Assembly (NCBI GenBank): GCA_038104845.1
Contig: JAYOBJ010000004.1
Location: forward strand, 14,129-78,128
Length of the DNA stretch: 64,000 bases
Origin: Methanobacteriota archaeon
GTDB taxonomy: Archaea; Thermoplasmatota; Poseidoniia; Poseidoniales; Poseidoniaceae
Direction: 5' to 3'
Shown: positions 6,997 to 16,482 of the stretch, in pieces
Position numbering within the stretch: position 1 is the stretch's first letter
How the letters are laid out: every line of letters starts with the position of its first letter
Program-made: the position numbers and the translations under genes
The notes under the pieces: generated by a model
Databases searched by the model: none
What the model saw: only the letters and a program-made list of their open reading frames with translations
What the model was told of the DNA's origin: nothing

Positions 6997-7468
6997 TCCG
7001 TTCACCGGTGTCGTGGTCGGGCTGCACGTCAACCCCAACGGCGGGGTGCCCAAGCACCCCGTGGCAACCCTTCGGGTCCATTCCGAGGGTTGCGATGGAG
7101 ACCGCCAGAACGACCGCCGTCACCACGGTGGTCCCGACCGAGCGGTTTGCCTCATGGCGGAAGAAATCTTGACGGAATTGATCGCTGACGGTCATCCCAT
7201 TCATCCGGGGTCAACGGGTGAAAACGTGCTGATCTCCGGGATTGAACCCACGGCGTATGCACCGGGCGTCCACTTGAACTTTGAAAGCGGTGTGGTGCTG
7301 GAAATCACGACGGATGCCCCCCCTTGCGCCACCATTTCTGCATCGTTCATTGACGGCAGGTTCCACGCGCTGTCCCACAAACGGCAGGTGGCCGTCACCC
7401 GCTGGTACGCTCGGGTGGTCGAGGAAGGGAACCTGTCGTTGGGTCAGTCGGTCTTGCATTCTCAATGA
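6986..7468 (+). CDS. MOSC-domain protein (YiiM-like)
   Basis: MOSC-type beta-barrel motifs (GDRQNDRRHHGGPDRAVCL...GENVLISG). Overlaps the aEF-2 stop by 11 nt. Confidence 0.7.
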   Translation: MPSDPFTGVVVGLHVNPNGGVPKHPVATLRVHSEGCDGDRQNDRRHHGGPDRAVCLMAEEILTELIADGHPIHPGSTGENVLISGIEPTAYAPGVHLNFESGVVLEITTDAPPCATISASFIDGRFHALSHKRQVAVTRWYARVVEEGNLSLGQSVLHSQ

Positions 7469-9213
7469 AGACGGGCGAGTTGGAAATCCGTGAGTTCACG
7501 CAGAGCACGCAAGGCAGGGGTTTTGGGGAGCCGGTCCAGGCATTCATGGGCTTCTTGATGAAACGCTTCGGCACGTGAGCGAGCGTAGCCGATGGAACCG
7601 AGTTCATCCAAGGCCTGAAGGGCGGACTTGAGGACCTTGGGGTCAACGTTGTCACCGTGACCCAAGGCGGCGAGCAAGCGATCCTTCGCCGGCTGATCGG
7701 TTTGAGCAAGCGCATGAATGATCATCAACGTGCGCTTCCCTTGGGCCACATCGGAGCCTGCGGGTTTCCCCAAGGTGTCCGAATCCGAGAGCACATCGAT
7801 GAGGTCGTCCATCAGTTGGAAACACAAGCCAACAGCGAGCCCCCACTGAGCCATCAAGGCAATGACATCCTCGTCGGCCCCAGAGATGCGTGCGCCGATT
7901 TCAGCGCAGGTCAGGAACATCACGGCGGTTTTCCCTTCGATCATCTGAAGGTAGTCGGCTTCGTCCACGTCGAGCCGTTCTTCAAATTCGATGTCCATTT
8001 GCTGACCCTCACTGACCCTTCGAACCATCCACGCGATTCGGTTGACAAGTGGCGCCACGTCCTCTGGTTCGAGGTTCTCAGCCTGAACCAAGCGCTCAAA
8101 CGCAATCGCCAGCATGGCGTCGCCTGCATTGATGGCGGTCGGCATCCCGTACTCGATGTGGACGGCATTGCGCCCCCTTCGAAGTTCATCGTCGTCCATG
8201 ATATCGTCGTGGACCAGCGTAAAATTGTGCACGGTTTCAATGGCTGCACCGATGTCCAACAGCCCCGAATGGGTGTCACCGACGGCTTTGGCCACCAGCC
8301 ATGGTAAGGTCGCTCTCATGCGTTTTCCACCGCCTTCGATGAGGTGCATCATGGCTCGGCCAAGTCGCTCGTGTTGCGAGGCTTTGAGGCTGGATTCAAT
8401 CCGCCACTCGACCAAGGACTTGACCTCCCTGATGGACGTGAGAAGGTCGGCACCGACGGCGTCCGGGAGCATGTGGCTGACATCACCCATGTCGTGGATG
8501 AGGTCGTCCGACAACGCCTTGCTCGCTTCCACCTCCCCACAAGCATCCCACCATGCCTCGGTCATGATCCTCGCTGCAATGCAACGGAACCAAGGCGCGA
8601 CCACTTCACCGGGGGACGGTTCCGCCAACAGCATCGCTTCAAGTTCATCGTACGTGACCCATCGGGTGTCGGCCACCTCGTTGGGGTTTGGGTTCACCTG
8701 AAGGTCGGCTTTCATCACGAGAATGTGGTCCAGTTCACGTTCAATCCACGTTTCGTTCATCCGAGCAGCGTAACGCATTTTCGTCATGAACACCATGTCC
8801 TCCATCTTCAGGTGCTCCGGGTCGACGCCCAGTTCCTGTTCCATTTTTCGCACGGCGGCTCGCTTGACACCCATGGCGTTTTCCACATCAAGTTCCCCTT
8901 TGTCGTGGAGTGGATGGGAGCAACAGGTGTTGGCCCACACGCCTGGAAAGGTAACTTTGTCCTCCGACCGTTGTTGCAACAACAGTCGGTGTTGACTGTC
9001 AAAAACGAGCAAACTGAACGCCCGGTGAAATTGACCCTGTCCGCGGTGGGCTTCCACCTTGGATACCGGGCCCAAGACATTGTCCCATTCGTCAACGGCG
9101 ATCAGCGATTCCGCCATCAACGCTGCTTGATGCCGATCGTGGCCCTCGAGCTGCGAGCGTTCTTCATCGCTCAGCACGGTGTGCGGCACATCTTGGATTC
9201 CATAGCCTCCCAT
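7462..9213 (-). CDS. idi-ggps: bifunctional type-1 isopentenyl-diphosphate isomerase / geranylgeranyl-diphosphate synthase (fusion)
   Basis: N-terminal half is eukaryote-like type-1 IDI (HRAFSLLVFDSQHRLLLQQRSEDKVTFPGVWANTCCSHPL). C-terminal half is a trans-prenyltransferase with FARM LVHDDIMDDDELRRG (Phe at -5, short-chain type) and SARM FQLMDDLIDV. Start placed at internal ATG (MGGYGIQ); the ORF extends to 9318 and would then overlap IPK. Confidence 0.85.
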   Translation of the reverse strand: MGGYGIQDVPHTVLSDEERSQLEGHDRHQAALMAESLIAVDEWDNVLGPVSKVEAHRGQGQFHRAFSLLVFDSQHRLLLQQRSEDKVTFPGVWANTCCSHPLHDKGELDVENAMGVKRAAVRKMEQELGVDPEHLKMEDMVFMTKMRYAARMNETWIERELDHILVMKADLQVNPNPNEVADTRWVTYDELEAMLLAEPSPGEVVAPWFRCIAARIMTEAWWDACGEVEASKALSDDLIHDMGDVSHMLPDAVGADLLTSIREVKSLVEWRIESSLKASQHERLGRAMMHLIEGGGKRMRATLPWLVAKAVGDTHSGLLDIGAAIETVHNFTLVHDDIMDDDELRRGRNAVHIEYGMPTAINAGDAMLAIAFERLVQAENLEPEDVAPLVNRIAWMVRRVSEGQQMDIEFEERLDVDEADYLQMIEGKTAVMFLTCAEIGARISGADEDVIALMAQWGLAVGLCFQLMDDLIDVLSDSDTLGKPAGSDVAQGKRTLMIIHALAQTDQPAKDRLLAALGHGDNVDPKVLKSALQALDELGSIGYARSRAEAFHQEAHECLDRLPKTPALRALRELTDFQLARLH

Positions 9214-9271
9214 GGTCACGCCCCCTCCAAGGTCAGCGCGGCGGCTACATGAACAGTTCCACGGCGGTCGG

Positions 9272-10087
9272 TCAACGCTCGTCCGCCAGCAACGACGTTC
9301 CCACCACACTTTTGCCAAGGCAGGCGTCTGTAAGCCGGCCGCGAACCTCGCCGTTCACCAAGATGACCTCGCAACCGTCGCGAGCCGCCTCAAACCCTCG
9401 ATGCACCTTCAAACCAATGCCACCCGTGACGTCCATGTAGGCGGCGTGTTCCCCTTCAAACGCAGTGGATGGGGTCAGCACCTCGATCAGGTCTTGCTCA
9501 AATCCATCCACCGGTGGCGAGCGCAACACGCCATCAACCCCGCCCATGGCGAACACCACACGGGTCACGCGTTCCACCTCCTTGGCCAAGCGAGCCACGA
9601 GGTCATCCCCGGACAGGATGCCGAAGTCGCGGGGCGGTTCGCACGGCACAACATCGCCGTACGTCACCACGACGATGCCGTGGGGTGCCGTTCGAAAGAC
9701 CTCCAAATCGGCGCCGAAATTCAGCCCTGTTCCGTTGACCCAGCGGTGAGGAGACCACCGCACGGCGCTGACATCGTGTGCCGTGAGGGCGTCCATGACG
9801 CGATCGTTGAGTTCCAACATGTCCTGCTGAACGGCTTTGACCGCATCACCTTGCGTCATGTTGCCGTCGGTGAATCCATCGATGTGACCTTCTGCGAGCC
9901 GGTATTGTTTCGCTTTCAAATGACCAAACGAACCCGCTCCATGAACCAAGAGCACGTCGACGCCGTTGTTGATGACGGTCCGCAGTTCTTCAGCGAGGGC
10001 ATCAATGACCTGATCATTGACGGTTTTCATGGTGGATTTGTTGGTGATCAAACCCCCTCCCCATTTCACCACCACGCACGGTCGCAT
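9272..10087 (-). CDS. ipk: isopentenyl phosphate kinase (amino-acid-kinase fold)
   Basis: VVKWGGGLITNK glycine-rich loop, LVHGAGSFGH and the overall AAK fold typical of archaeal IPK. Confidence 0.85.
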   Translation of the reverse strand: MRPCVVVKWGGGLITNKSTMKTVNDQVIDALAEELRTVINNGVDVLLVHGAGSFGHLKAKQYRLAEGHIDGFTDGNMTQGDAVKAVQQDMLELNDRVMDALTAHDVSAVRWSPHRWVNGTGLNFGADLEVFRTAPHGIVVVTYGDVVPCEPPRDFGILSGDDLVARLAKEVERVTRVVFAMGGVDGVLRSPPVDGFEQDLIEVLTPSTAFEGEHAAYMDVTGGIGLKVHRGFEAARDGCEVILVNGEVRGRLTDACLGKSVVGTSLLADER

Positions 10088-10111
10088 GGCTTGAGCAACA
10101 GGACAACGGCC

Positions 10112-10510
10112 ATGAGCCTATCGCCGTGTGGTGGGGCAAGCATTGATGTGCTTGAGCAAGAACCGGCTGCCATGGATGAACAACCCACGGTGGAGGCCTT
10201 CATGCGTCACCTGCAGGTGTGCTTGGAGGAGGCGGCCACCATTGGGGATGCCCAAGAGCGAGAGCAGCGTTGCTGGCAAATCGAAGCGGCGCTTCAAGAG
10301 GCCATTCTCTACAAGAACCGTGTGGAGCAGTTGCTGCAGCACGGTGTTGACCCGATTCACTTGGTTCAACCCGCTCCCGATGGCACGCGAGCCCCCGCCC
10401 CCCGAAAAATTGAGGCGCTCAACGGGTCACATCGGCACTGCCAGAAATGCGGTGCTGGGCTTGAAAACGATCTCGACTTCTGCCCGGCATGTGGGCACGA
10501 GAATGCGTGA
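10112..10510 (+). CDS. small zinc-ribbon protein
   Basis: C-terminal CQKCG-x11-CPACG ribbon. In the frame of ORF 9212..10510 but starting at the internal ATG after the IPK gene. Divergent from IPK. Confidence 0.5.
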   Translation: MSLSPCGGASIDVLEQEPAAMDEQPTVEAFMRHLQVCLEEAATIGDAQEREQRCWQIEAALQEAILYKNRVEQLLQHGVDPIHLVQPAPDGTRAPAPRKIEALNGSHRHCQKCGAGLENDLDFCPACGHENA

Positions 10511-10516
10511 GGCCGG

Positions 10517-11230
10517 TCACTCTTCTTCTTCTTGACGGGTCCATTCGGCGACGATTTCCGTGATGATGGGGTCGTCGGCTTCGACTTGATACAGGTATTC
10601 GCCTGGAACTTCGTCGGTCAAGAAAACGGTCTTACCGGCCCGGTAAATGACATGTCCGTCGGCGATGGCACGTGTGGTGTCGACCTCGAGGATGGTCGGT
10701 CGATGGATGCGAACGTGGCCGGCTTCCATGGCGTTGGCAATGGTTCGCGACAAGTGGACGTTTTTCCGGTCGCCAGCGGTGATGCCGTACTCCATGTAGG
10801 TCTCCACTTCATCGGCTTGGCACGGGTAGAACAGCACTTCGGGGATGTCGTCGGTCGGTAGGTCGAGGTCAAGTTCAATCGAGTGGCCATACGTGGCTCG
10901 AATCATCCCGTTCTCAACTTGGTAGCGACCTTTCTCATCAGCGTTGGCGATGGCTTCGAAGTGCCAGCCGCGCAGCCAGTGGTAGTGGCGGCGTTGGTTG
11001 CCAATGGCGTCGGAAAGCTCCCGAGCGTTCACCCATCCGTTGATGTCCATGTCCACCCCGAACTTCTCGGGTGCGTGTCGGAGCACCAACGCCAGCATCC
11101 GTCCCAAACTGTTGGCTTCTCGGTCGCTCATGATGAATTTCCCTTCATCGTTGCAGACAGCGCAGTTGGTTCCTGAAAAGTGTCCGTGGGTCCTGCATTG
11201 GCGCAGCATGGAGTGAAGGCGAGGGTCCAC
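10517..11230 (-). CDS. kptA: RNA 2'-phosphotransferase (Tpt1/KptA family)
   Basis: LGRMLALVLRHAPEKFGVDMDINGWVNAREL matches the KptA core. The ORF starts with GTG at 11230 and carries a Cys/His-rich 33-aa N-terminal extension; the start could instead be the ATG at about 11131. Confidence 0.8.
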   Translation of the reverse strand: MDPRLHSMLRQCRTHGHFSGTNCAVCNDEGKFIMSDREANSLGRMLALVLRHAPEKFGVDMDINGWVNARELSDAIGNQRRHYHWLRGWHFEAIANADEKGRYQVENGMIRATYGHSIELDLDLPTDDIPEVLFYPCQADEVETYMEYGITAGDRKNVHLSRTIANAMEAGHVRIHRPTILEVDTTRAIADGHVIYRAGKTVFLTDEVPGEYLYQVEADDPIITEIVAEWTRQEEEE

Positions 11231-11317
11231 GCCTCATGAACCCTGCGGGATGGGTTGACGCAGAAACCACGCCCTGGCAAGCGAGGGTATCAAGGACCGA
11301 AGGGTGGTGGCAACGGC

Positions 11318-12490
11318 ATGGTGAACGTGGCGATGGTCGGCGCTGGCCAAACCAAGTACGGCAATCATCCACTGGGGCTCAAAGGGATGTGGGCCGAGGC
11401 TGCTGAACAGGCCTTCGCGTCGATTGACGGTGACGTTGAACCCCAACAGGTGGACGAGGCGTTCATCGGTAGCCTGGCCTTCGGCGGGGCCCAATTGGGC
11501 AACACCGCCGCGTTGTTGACCGAGCACTCCCGAATGAAGGGCGTTCCGGTTCGCCGGGTGGAAAATGCATGCGCCTCTTCGGGTTACGCCCTTCGAGATG
11601 CCTGGATGGCCATCAAATCCGGTCAAGCGGACATCGTGGTGGCCGGTGGCATCGAGAAAATGAACGACTTAACACCCGAGCGCAAGCGGTACTGGCTCGG
11701 GGTGTCCGGTGACACGGAATGGGAACGCCTCGCTGGGTTGACCTTTCCTGGTACCTACGCCTTGATGGCACGCCGACATTTTCACGAACACGGAAGCACA
11801 CACGACGACCTCGTTCACATCAGTGTCAAAAATCATCTCCACGGGTCGATGAATGCCAAAGCACACATTCAGAAAGCGGTGGATTTCGAGAAAGCCGCCT
11901 CAGGCTTCATGGTGGCTGACCCCCTTACGCTGTACGACTGTTGCCCCACCTCGGACGGTGCTTCGTGCGTTGTGCTGGCGGCCGACCACGTCGCACGGCG
12001 ATTGACCGACACACCGGTGTGGATCAACGGGTCCGGTGCGGCCTCGGACCATCTGGCTCTCCACGACCGGCCAAGCATCACGCGACTCGCTGCCACCCAG
12101 CAAGCCGCTCGGCGAGCCTATGCCCAGGCCGGCGTGTCAGCAGGCGACATTGACCTTGCTGAGGTTCACGATTGCTTCACCATCGCCGAGTTGCTGGCCA
12201 CCGAAGACCTCGGTTTCGCAGCCGCCGGTGAAGGGGGTGTGTTCGCCCGCAACGGGGAGGGCCGCCTCAACGAGGGCGACGTCACCATCAACGCCAGTGG
12301 TGGCCTCAAATCGAAAGGTCATCCACTCGGTGCCACCGGAACCGGTCAAGCGGTCGAGGTCTTTCAACAACTTCGGCACGAGGTGGGGAACCAACGGCAA
12401 GTGCGCGACGCAGAAGTGGCCCTCACGCACAACGTGGGTGGTTCGGGTGCCACGTGTGCGGTCCATGTGTTCGGTCGGGAGGTGGCCTGA
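11318..12490 (+). CDS. thiolase (acetyl-CoA C-acetyltransferase, archaeal SCP-x-like type)
   Basis: Thiolase-fold motifs: VENACASSGYAL active-site Cys region, and C-terminal NASGGLKSKGHPLGATG, HNVGGSGAT. Start at MVNVAMVGAG. Confidence 0.85.
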   Translation: MVNVAMVGAGQTKYGNHPLGLKGMWAEAAEQAFASIDGDVEPQQVDEAFIGSLAFGGAQLGNTAALLTEHSRMKGVPVRRVENACASSGYALRDAWMAIKSGQADIVVAGGIEKMNDLTPERKRYWLGVSGDTEWERLAGLTFPGTYALMARRHFHEHGSTHDDLVHISVKNHLHGSMNAKAHIQKAVDFEKAASGFMVADPLTLYDCCPTSDGASCVVLAADHVARRLTDTPVWINGSGAASDHLALHDRPSITRLAATQQAARRAYAQAGVSAGDIDLAEVHDCFTIAELLATEDLGFAAAGEGGVFARNGEGRLNEGDVTINASGGLKSKGHPLGATGTGQAVEVFQQLRHEVGNQRQVRDAEVALTHNVGGSGATCAVHVFGREVA

Positions 12491-13308
12491 TGGACGAACA
12501 CCTTGTCTGGCAAGGTTACCTGCTCAGTCACCACGATGCGTTCACCGTGGTGCAATCGCCGTTCACGCTGACCGGCGCCCGTGTCTTTGGTGCAGACAGC
12601 GACCCAACCACCCTTGCCGTCGCTGCGTTGCTCCACCGGATCGGAACGGAACGGGTGGACTCGGTGAGCGTCCCTGAGGGCATGGACGGCCCCACCTTGG
12701 CCGCAGCATGCGGTGTGAAAGTGGCCAGCGAGGACGACCTTGATGCCTGCTCGTGGGACCTGATGCTCAGCGATGAGGCCGTGGTGGTGTTGGCCAAGCG
12801 TGGAGCGGACTTGACCATCCCCCACCTCGATGTCGAAGTGCCGGTCGATGCTCAAGAACACGCTGCTATGGAGGAGGCTTGGTCGAAGGAACTCCATCCG
12901 CAGCACGTGAGTCAAGGTGCCTTTGTGTCGGAGGCAGCGTACGTTGAGGGTGCGGGTGCTCGACTGGCCATGGAAGGTCAGCGAACCCGAGGCACCGTGG
13001 TGTGGCCGCCCCGCTTCGGCGACCACGGTTCAGCCGAGTCCACCAACGTCCACCGCACTGGCGAGGTGTTGTCGTGGACAGCGCTGAGCGCTGCGGGAGC
13101 CCCCTCGGAATTTGCGTTGCGAGCGCCGTTGTTGGGTGGCTTGGCCACGGTGTTGTTGCACTTGGAGGACGGGCCCAACGGTGTGTTCCTCCTGGTGGAC
13201 GATGAAGATCACGACATCACCATGGGGGCATCGGTGGAATTGGTCCTGCGTCGCCTTTACGCCCAAGAGGGGTTCATGCGTTACGGGCTTAAAGGTCGGC
13301 TCGTTTGA
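12490..13308 (+). CDS. thiolase-associated protein with a C-terminal DUF35-like OB-fold domain
   Basis: ATG overlaps the thiolase stop (TGATG). C-terminal 90 aa resemble the DUF35 OB-fold (GEVLSWTAL...GGLATVLLHLEDGPNGVFLLVDDEDHDITMGASVELVLRRLYAQEGFMRYGLKG) but carry no 4-Cys zinc ribbon. N-terminal 180 aa are unassigned. Confidence 0.6.
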   Translation: MDEHLVWQGYLLSHHDAFTVVQSPFTLTGARVFGADSDPTTLAVAALLHRIGTERVDSVSVPEGMDGPTLAAACGVKVASEDDLDACSWDLMLSDEAVVVLAKRGADLTIPHLDVEVPVDAQEHAAMEEAWSKELHPQHVSQGAFVSEAAYVEGAGARLAMEGQRTRGTVVWPPRFGDHGSAESTNVHRTGEVLSWTALSAAGAPSEFALRAPLLGGLATVLLHLEDGPNGVFLLVDDEDHDITMGASVELVLRRLYAQEGFMRYGLKGRLV

Positions 13309-13354
13309 TGGCATCAAAGAGTTCATAGAAAACCGTGTCACCATCACCGTTATG

Positions 13355-14368
13355 GCTGGTTTTGGCGGCATGCGCAAAGGTCGAGAAGAAGCGAAGACCA
13401 ACCTTGGTTTCACCGAAGGTGGCGATTGCCCTCGCTGCGGTGGGAACGCACAGGATTCCAGCATGGCGGGTTACTTGCAGTGCGGCTCGTGCATGCACGA
13501 ATGGGCCGATCCAAATTACGTCGAAGAGCGTCGCCGTCCCGAGCCTCCCACACATCGCCGTGATGCCGAGTTGATTGAGCAATTCAAATCCGAAATGGCA
13601 TCGGGTGAATTGGCGAATGTCTTGGGCGTGAACAAGAATTTGACGGGCGCGCAGGAGCAATCCCTCAAGCGCCTTGAAGACAAGTGGATGAGCGGGATGC
13701 AAGGTCACTACAACGCCGCCTCGGAGGAGCGGAAGCCCTTGATGATCAGTTTTGATGACGACGACAACATCGTGTCCACCGAAGTCGCGGCCATCACCAT
13801 CGTGTCCAACGGGTTTGACGGTGGTGAGGAGATTCGACTGGAATACCCCGGCCGTGGGACCGAATTTTACGCCTACAACGAGCGCAGCCCCACCGGTTGG
13901 AAGCGTGGACGGGACGCCGAGGCCACCGCCCGTTCCATCGCGAACGTCATCAACCGGTCAAGCCGTTTGGTCTATGCCAACCTGCAAGGGCACCGCATCT
14001 CGTTTGAGCTTCGCGAACATGACCTCAAGCCAGAATCCTTTGTCATCTTCGTCGACGACCCGGGCGGCACCGACATCGTCGCCGAAAAGGGGGGTGTGGT
14101 GCTGGATCACCGCGACTTCTCAACCCTCCAGGACTACCGAACGGTGGTTGAAATGGTCCTCGAGGATGGCATCATTTCCCCAAGCGAAGACCAACTGCTT
14201 TGGGCCATGCGCCAACAACTCAACATCGACGATGCCTACCACGTTCAGATGGTCATCGACATCTGCGGCGAACACACGCTGAAGGAATGCACCTCGTGCA
14301 GCGGGATGGCCGAGTTGTATCCCGAGTACGCCGCTTGGTACTGCCATGCGTGCGAAGCGTGGTGCTGA
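13355..14368 (+). CDS. hypothetical protein with N- and C-terminal zinc ribbons and a TerB-like C-terminal motif
   Basis: CPRCGG-x11-CGSC at the N-terminus and CTSCSG-x13-CHAC at the C-terminus; DGIISPSEDQLLWAMRQQL resembles TerB-type helices. Start at the internal ATG (MAGFGG). Confidence 0.55.
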   Translation, partial: AGFGGMRKGREEAKTNLGFTEGGDCPRCGGNAQDSSMAGYLQCGSCMHEWADPNYVEERRRPEPPTHRRDAELIEQFKSEMASGELANVLGVNKNLTGAQEQSLKRLEDKWMSGMQGHYNAASEERKPLMISFDDDDNIVSTEVAAITIVSNGFDGGEEIRLEYPGRGTEFYAYNERSPTGWKRGRDAEATARSIANVINRSSRLVYANLQGHRISFELREHDLKPESFVIFVDDPGGTDIVAEKGGVVLDHRDFSTLQDYRTVVEMVLEDGIISPSEDQLLWAMRQQLNIDDAYHVQMVIDICGEHTLKECTSCSGMAELYPEYAAWYCHACEAWC

Positions 14369-14486
14369 ACGCACGCAAACGACCGTTCTATAGGACCGTC
14401 CATCGGTGTTCCACATCGCTCTCCTCGCAACGTGAACGTCGATGGGTCAAGGGACCTTTCATAAAGTGAAGGGACTACGCAACCCC

Positions 14487-15512
14487 ATGGCCAACGAAAC
14501 GCTGTACATTGGAATCGATTTGGGGACGTTCCGTTCCGTGATGGTGTCGTCCGACAGCCACGAAGTCGAAGAACTGACCGTCATCGGCACCCCCAAAGAC
14601 CCCATCGCGCGCAATTTCTTGAAGCGAGATGTGCTCTTCGGCCACGAGGCCCTGAAGAACCGCTTGGCACTCAACCTGTTCCGGCCGCTTGAACTCGGTG
14701 TCATCAAGGACACGCCAGAAGACCGCGAATTCATCGCCCACTTCATCACCCACCTCATCGGCTTGGCCGACCCCGAGGAATACGACCGTGTGGTCGCCGT
14801 CATCGGTGCACCGGCCGAAGCCAGCCACGTTGACAAGACGGCCATCTTTGACGCTGCAGCGGGTTCCGTGAACTCGGCCATGATCATTTCAGAACCGTTT
14901 GCTGTCGCCTACGCCTTGGACATGATCACCCACACCCTGGTCATCGACATCGGTGCCGGCACCACGGACTTGTGCCGTGTGTACGGGACCATCCCCGGCC
15001 CTGGCGACCAGATGCACACCGGTCACGCTGGCGACTTCGTTGACAACCAACTCATCAAGGAAATCACGGCCAAATACAACGGTGCACAGGTCACCAAGGA
15101 CATGGCTCGACGCTGGAAAGAACAGTACTCCTTCGTGTCCACCGCAACGCCTGACGAGCCCGTGCTTGTCGACTTCTCAATCGAAGGCAAGGCCATGACC
15201 CTCGACATCACCGATTGCATGCAGCGTGCCTGCGAATCGATCGTTGACCCCATCGTCGAGAACGTGAAGAAGCTCATCGCCGGTTCCAACCCCGAATACC
15301 ACGACGAGTTCCGCAAGAACATGGTCCTCGCCGGTGGCGGCTCGTCCATCAAGGGCCTTGGTGCCCTCATCGAACGGCGACTCTCCGACATGGGCGATGT
15401 GAACGTTCACGTTGTGGACGACCCCGTTCGCCTCGGTGCCATGGGTGGCCTTCGGTTGGCCATGGAAGTCCCCGAGGACATGTGGAAGAACCTCACCTTG
15501 GCATCTCGCTGA
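14487..15512 (+). CDS. actin-fold ATPase, MreB/archaeal-actin-like
   Basis: Phosphate-1 LYIGIDLGTFRS, connect-1 ISEPFAVAYALD, phosphate-2 LVIDIGAGTTD, adenosine motif VLAGGGSSIKGL, plus VDDPVRLGAMGG. Start at MANETLY. Confidence 0.75.
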   Translation: MANETLYIGIDLGTFRSVMVSSDSHEVEELTVIGTPKDPIARNFLKRDVLFGHEALKNRLALNLFRPLELGVIKDTPEDREFIAHFITHLIGLADPEEYDRVVAVIGAPAEASHVDKTAIFDAAAGSVNSAMIISEPFAVAYALDMITHTLVIDIGAGTTDLCRVYGTIPGPGDQMHTGHAGDFVDNQLIKEITAKYNGAQVTKDMARRWKEQYSFVSTATPDEPVLVDFSIEGKAMTLDITDCMQRACESIVDPIVENVKKLIAGSNPEYHDEFRKNMVLAGGGSSIKGLGALIERRLSDMGDVNVHVVDDPVRLGAMGGLRLAMEVPEDMWKNLTLASR

Positions 15513-15774
15513 GAACAGAGGATTTCGTCACACAGGAAGGTGACGGGCCGCACTGGCCAGGTTGGCTTGGACGTAACGTGCACCTCCGCATCTGATGCCG
15601 AGAGCCGTGGTTTCCTCGATTCCTGTGACTTACAATTCGTCTTGAATGGTCTCATGCGCAGTTGAATCAGCACCCCTCCATTGGAAACAGACGACACACT
15701 TTCGTGCGATTGTTTGCAAGGTCGGGGAACCGCTGTTCAAGCTCGGTCAACAGTTTCGTGATGGTTGGTGATGA

Positions 15775-16434
15775 TCAGGCGTTGCCGGCTGCTTCGACTT
15801 CGGCCCAGTCCTTCATGAACCCGTCAAGACCCTTGTCGGTCAGAGGATGGCTCATCAGCTGGCGGAAGGTCTTGGCGGGCATGGTTGCCGTGTGCGCACC
15901 CAATTGGATGCACTGGAGCACGTGCGTGGGGTGGCGGATGGACGCAGCGAGCACTTTGGTGTCGAGGTCATAATTGGCCCAGGTGTTCATGATTTCAGCG
16001 ATGAGTTCCATACCGTCATGGCCGGTGTCGTCGATGCGGCCAATGAAGGGTGAGACGTAGGTGGCGCCGGCCTTGGCAGCCATGAGTGCCTGCGAGGCGG
16101 AGAAGATCAGGGTCACGTTCGTGTCCACACCCTCCTCGCTCAGAATTTTGGTGGCGGCCAAGCCAGCAGGGGTGCACGGAATTTTGATGATCACGTTCTC
16201 TGGAAGTTCGGCCTTCAAGGCTCGACCCTGCTCCACCATGCCATCGGTGTCCAAGGCGGTCACTTCGGCCGAGATAGGGCCGCTGCAAATGCCAGCGATT
16301 TCCCGCACCACTTCCTTGAAATCGCGTCCGGATTTTTTGATGAGCGACGGGTTGGTGGTCACGCCGTCGAGAATCCCCCACGAGGCAATTTCACGAATTT
16401 CATCAACGTCAGCGGTGTCCAGGAAAAATTCCAT
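15775..16434 (-). CDS. tal: transaldolase (small archaeal/FSA-type)
   Basis: [11 protein letters not shown]...GVTTNPSL...IKIPCT motifs. Confidence 0.9.
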
Positions 16435-16482
16435 GCCCAACCGTCAACGAAGCGGTTCTATGAACCCTCCCCCAGCGCGGTG

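Follow-up and report, generated by a model that had tools for sequence, protein, structure and literature searches.

Few archaea are as abundant in the surface ocean as those of Marine Group II; they are uncultured, and to our knowledge their cell biology is essentially unknown. Here we describe two adjacent genes, A and B, in a 64-kb stretch of DNA (64,000 nucleotides, hereafter the window, with position 1 as its first letter) that by its sequence belongs to an archaeon of this group, the order Poseidoniales of the phylum Thermoplasmatota. The closest matches of A and B are named Candidatus Poseidoniales, Poseidoniaceae, Thalassarchaeaceae or Poseidonia sp., and a GTDB species representative, WTJK01000003.1, is 99% identical; we therefore assign the window to a Marine Group II archaeon. 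This bears out the lineage given in a preliminary description of the locus, which had presumed a wall-less type of archaeon.

The two genes are co-directional, both on the + strand, with a spacer of 118 nucleotides (nt), and the guanine-plus-cytosine content is even across the region (0.58–0.61). What is new is a MamK-type actin in an archaeal order, genetically coupled to a putative accessory protein without known relatives. Neither protein A nor any actin or MamK homologue from Marine Group II or Poseidoniales was found described in the literature searched. Because the MamK-like actin gene always stands just after the orphan gene A, the pair suggests an undescribed archaeal cytoskeletal system. 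The genes and the motifs of B are as follows (aa, amino acids; ORF, open reading frame).

13352..14368, + strand: gene A, a 338-aa double-zinc-ribbon protein with an isoelectric point (pI) of 4.8 and no transmembrane segment
14487..15512, + strand: gene B, a 341-aa MamK-like actin-fold ATPase with an ATG start (from ORF, NCBIfam, PDB, profile and fold ranking)
14508..14528, + strand: phosphate-1 motif IGIDLGT, residues 8–14 of B, aligned to LGVDLGT of MamK
14883..14969, + strand: connect-1/catalytic Glu motif ISEPFAVAY (residues 134–142) and phosphate-2 motif VIDIGAGTTD (residues 152–161) of B
15324..15347, + strand: adenosine motif LAGGGS, residues 281–286 of B, aligned to FAGGGS of MamK

The predicted actin-fold ATPase B

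B is 75–99% identical across the order Poseidoniales, and its homologues are nearly all 341 aa long; a longer ORF starting at 14442 exists. The preliminary description had credited this 341-aa protein with the full set of actin-fold nucleotide-binding motifs, and alignment to MamK and to 23 homologues upholds that claim. Residues I8, G9, D11, L12, G13 and T14 are invariant in the 23 homologues, as are L281 to S286 and almost all positions of the connect and phosphate-2 motifs. E143 (in SEPF) and D161 (in VDIGAGTTD) of MamK are matched without a shift in the alignment. Judged by its sequence, B is an intact MamK-type actin-fold ATPase with conserved nucleotide motifs and catalytic residues.

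The ranking MamK > BeeR > MreB > actin > Hsp70 is the same by sequence, by profile and by predicted fold. Among NCBIfam models, MamK is the top-scoring family by a wide margin (361.5 bits, E 3.8e-108, model positions 1–331 of 335), ahead of BeeR (211.3 bits), MreB (91), salactin (57.4) and FtsA, HscA and DnaK (15–26 bits). A sequence search of the PDB placed three MamK entries first (best E 6.5e-76), then BeeR (E 2e-44), with MreB (about 1e-13) and eukaryotic actin (about 1e-5) at lower ranks. The profile of the B family, built from 23 Poseidoniales proteins, gave 278 bits for MamK, 180 for BeeR, 64 for MreB, 29 for actin and 24 for Hsp70. The AlphaFold2 model of B is of moderate confidence (mean predicted local distance difference test, pLDDT, 73.6; subdomain IB poor), and Foldseek returned MamK as its best match (E 1.6e-29, template-modelling (TM) score 0.70–0.78), followed by BeeR and then MreB. 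Indeed, B and MamK (PDB 5LJV, 5LJW, 5JYG; NF040964) have the same length and align colinearly over the whole protein, with residues 2–336 of B matching MamK 8–341 (5LJW) across two short gaps only, at 39.6% identity (132 of 333 aligned positions) and with all nucleotide motifs and the equivalents of E143 and D161 in place.

By these comparisons B is MamK-like and not MreB-, Ta0583- or crenactin-like. Its public names are "rod shape-determining protein MreB" or "hypothetical", and the former arises because B passes the broad Pfam model MreB_Mbl (88.8 bits, cut-off 27); Salactin, Actin, Volactin and HSP70 follow with weaker Pfam scores. The MreB label is misleading, and the present evidence corrects it: B scores 90.7 bits against a cut-off of 293 on PRK13927 and 82.3 against 365.75 on TIGR00904, and PDB chains of MreB reach about 50–64 bits with B, compared with 259–278 for MamK. 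Nor does B belong to BeeR (211.3 vs 530 bits), since it starts 4 residues before the first fold strand and lacks the disordered N-terminal extension of 30–50 residues found in BeeR. It passes the Pfam gathering score for Salactin (47.4 vs 27.1), lies under that for Volactin (30.4, cut-off 35) and is far from the NCBIfam salactin equivalog (57.4 vs 400 bits). Ta0583, crenactin and ParM gave no match to B at E ≤1e-3 in the single-sequence PDB search and are absent from the best 60 of the 157 PDB chains matched at E up to 1 by the B-family profile.

The same rankings bear on a quite different reading, in which B is a non-polymerising actin-fold ATPase of chaperone or kinase type and A its zinc-finger co-factor, as DnaJ and DjlA are for Hsp70. 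DnaJ has zinc fingers and DjlA a TerB-like domain (textbook knowledge), which finds an echo in the zinc ribbons of A and in its faint TerB match (E 0.19). However, B reaches 15–25 bits on Hsp70/HscA models vs 361 on MamK, its Pfam HSP70 score of 16.6 bits is below the cut-off, HscA and DnaK models give 15–25 bits, and Hsp70 chains come last in the B-family profile search at about 22–24 bits. No J domain, CxxCxGxG repeat or substrate-binding domain was found, and no sugar-kinase family in Pfam or NCBIfam matches B. We regard a chaperone-like B as highly improbable, and its family rankings lead us to exclude it. That the ATPase should group with cytomotive actins rather than with Hsp70 or sugar kinases was a test set beforehand, and this is how it groups by sequence, profile and fold.

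MamK assembles with ATP into two-stranded, non-staggered filaments. Relatives of MamK outside magnetotaxis are known from Saltatorellota (bioRxiv 10.1101/817700) and, as BeeR, from Verrucomicrobiota (PMC11929497); their function is unknown. In heterologous hosts, the protein from Saltatorellus was seen along a filamentous structure (bioRxiv 10.1101/817700), and BeeR polymerises with ATP (PMC11929497). BeeR (PDB 8R2N) is the second-best match to B (155–180 bits), but B is nearer to MamK (about 40% identity) than BeeR is, for which its authors give 25–30% identity to MamK (PMC11929497). What sets B apart from BeeR and the Saltatorellota proteins is also its archaeal host and its constant partner gene. 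Salactin and volactin resemble B in being archaeal actin homologues outside the crenactin/Asgard line, and MamK is reported to be the actin-fold subfamily closest to salactin (PMC10746226). The match of B to salactin and volactin is nevertheless far weaker than that to MamK, and the long, charged N-terminal tail of salactin is absent from B. B differs from MamK itself in its archaeal host and in its surroundings: no magnetosome genes were found around B, and its conserved neighbour, the orphan zinc-ribbon protein A, has no counterpart among the MamK partners MamJ, MamY and McaA/B (PMC13170167).

The double-zinc-ribbon protein A

The features of A are the following.

13424..13510, + strand: N-terminal four-Cys zinc ribbon (CPRCGG ... 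CxxC), from Cys conservation and weak model matches
13655..13777, + strand: near-invariant, low-confidence segment, RLEDKWMSGMQGHFNxAxEERKPLMISFDDDDN, from alignment and model
13778..14107, + strand: central alpha/beta domain with motifs NGFDGGEEIRLEYPG, TARSI and FVDDPGG, from conservation and model
14126..14266, + strand: helical hairpin, LEDGIISPSEDQLLWAMRQQLGIDDxxH, an invariant motif
14279..14365, + strand: C-terminal four-Cys zinc ribbon (KECTxC ... WYCxxCExWC), with invariant Cys

The gene starts with the ATG at 13352–13354 and ends with the stop codon at 14366–14368. The preliminary description was right about an upstream gene with zinc ribbons, but its start at 13355 is codon 2, so the protein has 338 and not 337 aa; most homologues are 338 aa long, which agrees with the corrected start. 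Residue numbers of A given here count from 13355.

All homologues of A (n = 304) come from Poseidoniales-type sources. In an exhaustive HMMER search of 1.84 billion cluster representatives, full-length A formed one cluster; the other hits were numerous fragments of this family and a handful of unrelated proteins whose similarity is confined to the last 80 residues. There is no Pfam or NCBIfam match, no sequence relative in the PDB beyond L37ae-type ribbons at E 0.1, and no meaningful Foldseek match in the PDB, where weak domain-level matches to phage tail and flagellar proteins reach TM ≤0.2 on the whole query. By these searches A is an orphan specific to Poseidoniales. Its public names are "hypothetical" or "ribosomal protein L37AE/L43A", the latter because of the zinc ribbon.

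In the AlphaFold2 model of A (mean pLDDT 69), confidence is good for both ribbons, for the central alpha/beta domain and for the C-terminal module, but not for residues 100–140. A conserved basic peptide, MAGFGxxRKGRREAxENL, precedes the N-terminal ribbon. An alignment of 54 homologues (65–89% identical) confirms the zinc ribbons that had been proposed for both ends, with Cys 25/28/43/46 and 312/315/330/333 invariant or more than 90% conserved. The N-terminal ribbon, modelled as three short strands (pLDDT about 80), weakly matches Zn_ribbon_IS1595 (E 6e-4), the reverse gyrase finger, L37ae and TFIIB. A helical linker leads from it to a near-invariant stretch, residues 100–140, RLEDKWMSGMQGHFN.A.EERKPLMISFDDDDN, with pLDDT of 32–51. 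Because this stretch is near-invariant and yet modelled with low confidence, it is a candidate partner-binding segment that may fold on its partner. The central domain follows with three strands, a helix and four strands (pLDDT 79–90) and has no Pfam match even at E 10.

A is acidic overall (pI 4.8) and in all segments but the first 21 residues, and it contains no hydrophobic segment (highest 19-residue Kyte-Doolittle mean 0.94). Given this composition, nothing points to a membrane anchor, and the membrane-tethering role that had been offered for A finds no support. A WH2-like motif, LANVLGVxKxL, was considered and dropped, its pattern being off the WH2 consensus.

The helical hairpin had been called a TerB-like helix. 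The LEDGIISPSEDQ helix is indeed present and invariant in the 54 homologues, and the hairpin carries LEDGIISPSEDQLLW, but the TerB label is without statistical support. Against Pfam TerB (PF05099) A scores 12.4 bits (E 0.19, gathering score 24.4), over 30 residues that make up one hairpin of the 118-position model, and Tic110 (E 0.036) and ENT (E 0.087) score slightly better. A profile made from the A hairpin and the related repeats of four other proteins (P0302, P0306, P0309 and P0310) gave, in the PDB, the Tic110 repeat 4bm5 at E 1e-3, the ENT domain of EMSY at 0.15 and the TerB-like 2ou3 at E 1. On these Pfam and profile scores, and as far as sequence can tell, the motif is a widespread helical-hairpin repeat (Y..a...aLEDG.I...E...L..LR..L.I.d..H), and membership in TerB is unsupported.

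P0309, which has 235 aa and a hydrophobic stretch near its N terminus, likewise ends in the hairpin plus the WYCxxC ribbon of A, and the C-terminal ribbon alone occurs in seven tandem copies in P0306. P0302 proteins are helix-turn-helix regulators with tandem hairpin repeats, and the repeat is found in P0310 as well. Given the architectures of P0309 and P0306, the C-terminal end of A is a reusable module; the combination of an EDG-I-S/T...E...L hairpin with a Y.RWYCxxC ribbon appears to be an uncharacterised mobile module. A homologue search for the helix-plus-ribbon module of P0309 next to other actins returned nothing.

Gene linkage, promoter-like boxes and a proposed filament module

Relatives of A were found in 280 stretches (one genome per GTDB species), of which the best 80 loci, all Poseidoniales-type, were fetched. 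Two of these break off shortly behind A, at 4 and 122 nt, and thus could not show B. In all 78 loci with room, B lies directly after A, on the same strand and 108–164 nt away. The pair is likewise intact beside a 65%-identical A (L081–L083) and in Thalassarchaeaceae (L084 and L085), whose A and B show 54% and 81% identity, respectively. L086, which has the most divergent B among the matches listed (75% identity, with 49% for its A), keeps the pair as well. By comparison, the thiolase genes are missing between Tpt1 and A in L086, and five loci have the thiolase/OB-fold pair inverted and displaced with A–B unaltered. A-then-B is the sole adjacency never broken in the examined loci; the thiolase/OB pair and the downstream genes vary. 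Conservation of the upstream gene beside the ATPase had also been set as a test beforehand, and it was found in every locus able to show adjacency.

The rates and patterns of divergence add to this picture. In pairwise comparisons of 67 loci, B diverges least (mean distance 0.097), thiolase is intermediate (0.194) and A diverges most (0.254). At the sequence level B is under very strong constraint (purifying selection), as is usual for filament formers. Distances of A and B correlate with r 0.86 (partial r 0.67 given thiolase), and those of A and B with thiolase at 0.77 and 0.75, respectively; since the pairs of loci are non-independent, the A–B correlation is suggestive only.

Some of the relatives' records deserve a remark. 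L025 (NZEQ01000006.1, 26259-39269) carries a thiolase/OB/A/B locus (A 87%, B 95% identical) and is deposited as "Verrucomicrobiales bacterium isolate ARS100"; it is a Poseidoniales locus, on a contig probably mis-binned into a bacterial metagenome-assembled genome (MAG). Two MAGs have two A–B contigs each, L020/L023 (PAGK01, MED790) and L006/L014 (JAYYDY01, XS_MAG49), and the paired contigs differ slightly in identity, which suggests mixed strains in the bins, not duplication.

Each of the two genes is preceded by conserved, TATA-like boxes.

13322..13332, + strand: TATA-like box TTCATAGAAAA, starting 30 nt before the ATG of A, a conserved block upstream
14386..14394, + strand: distal box TTCTATAGG, 18 nt after the stop codon of A and 101 nt before the ATG of B
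14458..14466, + strand: proximal TATA-like box TTCATAAAG, starting 29 nt before the ATG of B
16457-16464, − strand: third copy of the TATA-like octamer, TTCATAGA, 24 nt before the transaldolase start codon

Upstream of A, the block caAAGcaTTcATAgAAAg stands at a constant distance from the start codon in 79 distinct upstream sequences. The TATA-like TTCTATAG noticed earlier between the genes is real and is one of the conserved boxes. The distal box TTCTATAGG occurs once in the window (0.06 expected), and T[CT]TATAG is found in 71 of the 84 A–B spacers, 10–38 nt after the stop codon of A; because it is kept in so many, we take the box to be beyond chance. In most relatives it is a near or perfect palindrome, TTCTATAGAA (14386-14395; spacers L001-L086), and could be a bidirectional TATA box or a site for a dimeric regulator. 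The proximal box lies inside a conserved block, GGgAttcTTCATAAagT, and TT[CG]ATAA[AG] is present in 80 of 84 spacers, 29–42 nt before the ATG of B in all but one. Only three copies of TTCATARA exist in the window, before A, B and the transaldolase gene. A Shine-Dalgarno-like GGTGAG precedes the ATG by 6–11 nt in many relatives.

These features indicate that B very probably has its own promoter. Separate transcription of A and B, as the preliminary description had suggested, is plausible, with conserved TATA-like boxes before both. Some read-through from A is also possible, since a run of at least five T occurs in only 19 of the 84 spacers. No Rfam family matches the A–B spacer at E up to 1. 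Scans for bacterial-type signals (sigma-70 promoters and intrinsic terminators) were at chance level and are inapplicable to an archaeon.

We propose that the A–B locus is a two-gene cytoskeletal module in the Poseidoniales core genome. B would bind and hydrolyse ATP and, by homology, would most likely polymerise into filaments like those of MamK; it would do so with ATP, as MamK, BeeR and the Saltatorellus MamK-like protein suggest. A, predicted to be soluble, acidic and order-specific, would most likely be a dedicated accessory factor of the B filament, acting as an adaptor that ties the filament to a cargo or site, or as an assembly regulator, by analogy with MamJ, ParR and arcadin-2. Since A and B are preceded by separate boxes that share an unusual form (TTCATARA), the two proteins could be produced in different amounts, probably under common control. 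The cellular job of such a module may be the positioning or segregating of something, or cell shaping.

On balance, we lean towards a role of A as an adaptor or regulator dedicated to the B filament. This partner role draws on two things, gene linkage and correlated divergence, from which we infer a contact between A and B. A also has features of a binding partner, namely the near-invariant, low-confidence segment 100–140 and a zinc ribbon at each end. A more far-reaching version is offered tentatively and is, in our estimate, possible but doubtful: Poseidoniales would run an unrecognised cytoskeleton of MamK-type actin, with A as a new class of actin-binding adaptor that positions or segregates a cargo. 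Contact with the filament would then be made by the near-invariant flexible segment of A or by its N-terminal basic peptide, leaving the two zinc ribbons to hold the cargo, be it the chromosome, a membrane site or an unknown compartment.

Several points weigh against a filament module of this kind. B lies below the NCBIfam MamK cut-off (NF040964; 361.5 vs 400 bits) and on that score falls just outside the MamK family as NCBI delimits it. Confidence in the model of A is no more than moderate (mean pLDDT 69). Magnetosome genes were not found nearby, so the known cargo of MamK is absent, and no alternative cargo was identified. A and B need not form one operon, as each has its own promoter-like boxes, and their distance correlation, drawn from non-independent pairs, comes without a valid p-value. 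Finally, genes in a core region that rearranges slowly can stay neighbours even when nothing links them functionally, and synteny extends here to the small zinc-ribbon gene and the Tpt1 gene upstream.

These last points lead to the alternative that B is a working MamK-like filament protein, for example in shape or positioning, and that A is an unrelated gene, adjacent through kept gene order. The isopentenyl phosphate kinase, small zinc-ribbon and Tpt1 genes are syntenic across families too, A and B each have a conserved promoter-like box of their own, and A has no similarity to any known actin-binding protein (PDB, Foldseek, Pfam). We nevertheless hold an unrelated A to be unlikely, because only A-then-B never breaks in the examined loci whereas the thiolase/OB pair and the downstream genes change, because A–B distances correlate better than those of A or B with thiolase, and because A and B have the same rare TATA variant.

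A further alternative is that the pair works in the manner of ParMRC or AlfAB, as a chromosomal machine that segregates DNA by means of an actin, with A as a DNA-binding zinc-ribbon adaptor that couples DNA to B filaments. Type II partition loci typically combine an actin with a small adaptor (textbook knowledge), zinc ribbons often bind nucleic acids, and the N-terminal ribbon of A resembles those of IS1595 transposase, TFIIB and reverse gyrase; salactin, an archaeal actin homologue whose nearest relative among actin-fold families is reported to be MamK, has been studied in a DNA-segregation context (PMC10746226). However, no iterons, repeat arrays or centromere-like repeats were found beside A–B (12900-15800), where only short chance repeats occur, and the putative adaptor gene comes first, upstream of B, the reverse of parMR, alfAB and alp7AR. 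Among 72,556 plasmids B has no close relatives, only MreB-like matches of <30% identity; its match to a PHROG partition protein is weak (E 1.4e-7), and ParM is not among the matches listed in PDB searches with B. A, moreover, is acidic in all but its first 21 residues. Such a partition locus is thus a quite improbable reading.

The proposed module of B filament and accessory A has a familiar outline. In ParM/ParR, AlfA/AlfB, crenactin/arcadin-2 and MamK/MamJ, too, the gene of an actin-like ATPase is coupled to that of an accessory protein specific to the lineage. Several of these partners bind their actin through a short conserved peptide, arcadin-2 (PMC5173319) among them. A differs from these partners in having no sequence or fold similarity to ParR, AlfB, arcadin-2 or MamJ, in being as large as the actin itself, in lying upstream, and in carrying a zinc ribbon at both ends.

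A near-invariant actin with a dedicated partner would be a clonable entry point into the cell biology of Marine Group II, both proteins being small and, by prediction, soluble. If the proposal is true, the MamK branch of the actin superfamily extends into Archaea, away from magnetosomes, and a new kind of actin-associated protein is added. It would bear on how prokaryotic actins are recruited for different cargoes, and MamK-type filaments would be a general positioning machine across domains, not a magnetosome speciality.

The surrounding genes

The genes discussed around A and B are these (OB, oligonucleotide/oligosaccharide-binding).

7462-9318, − strand: NUDIX/polyprenyl-synthase fusion
9272-10087, − strand: isopentenyl phosphate kinase
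10190-10510, + strand: 106-aa protein with a C-terminal CxxC...CxxC zinc ribbon and a weak DUF7575 match (E 4e-5)
11255-12490, + strand: thiolase
12454-13308, + strand: 284-aa protein with a weak ChsH2/DUF35-type OB fold, overlapping the 3′ end of the thiolase gene
15775-16440, − strand: transaldolase
L081 7109-7705, L084 5024-5599, L086 5208-5795, − strand: 191–198-aa protein convergent to B

Family searches identified the neighbours as housekeeping genes: EF-2, the NUDIX/polyprenyl-synthase fusion, isopentenyl phosphate kinase and Tpt1, and further the thiolase with its OB-fold partner, transaldolase, a split transketolase, an OPT transporter and a P-type ATPase. They found no mobile, viral or magnetosome-related genes, and no magnetosome gene cluster around B, among the neighbours in the window. 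Relatives show the same housekeeping context around A–B. A defence or phage origin was also considered and set aside: PADLOC and PHROGs matches were marginal only, in a context of core housekeeping genes.

Genes for isoprenoid precursors are grouped directly upstream of A (window 7462-13308). The 106-aa zinc-ribbon gene (10190-10510) lies between the isopentenyl phosphate kinase and Tpt1 genes, and since genes of 106–114 aa stand at the equivalent position in L081, L084 and L086, it is part of the conserved neighbourhood upstream of A–B. A 432-aa ORF (9212-10510) encloses it and mostly overlaps the kinase gene on the opposite strand; the overlapping part is probably spurious. On the other side of the pair, Thalassarchaeaceae-type and deeper relatives have, directly after B and convergent to it, a 191–198-aa protein with no Pfam match, whose place is taken by transaldolase in the window.

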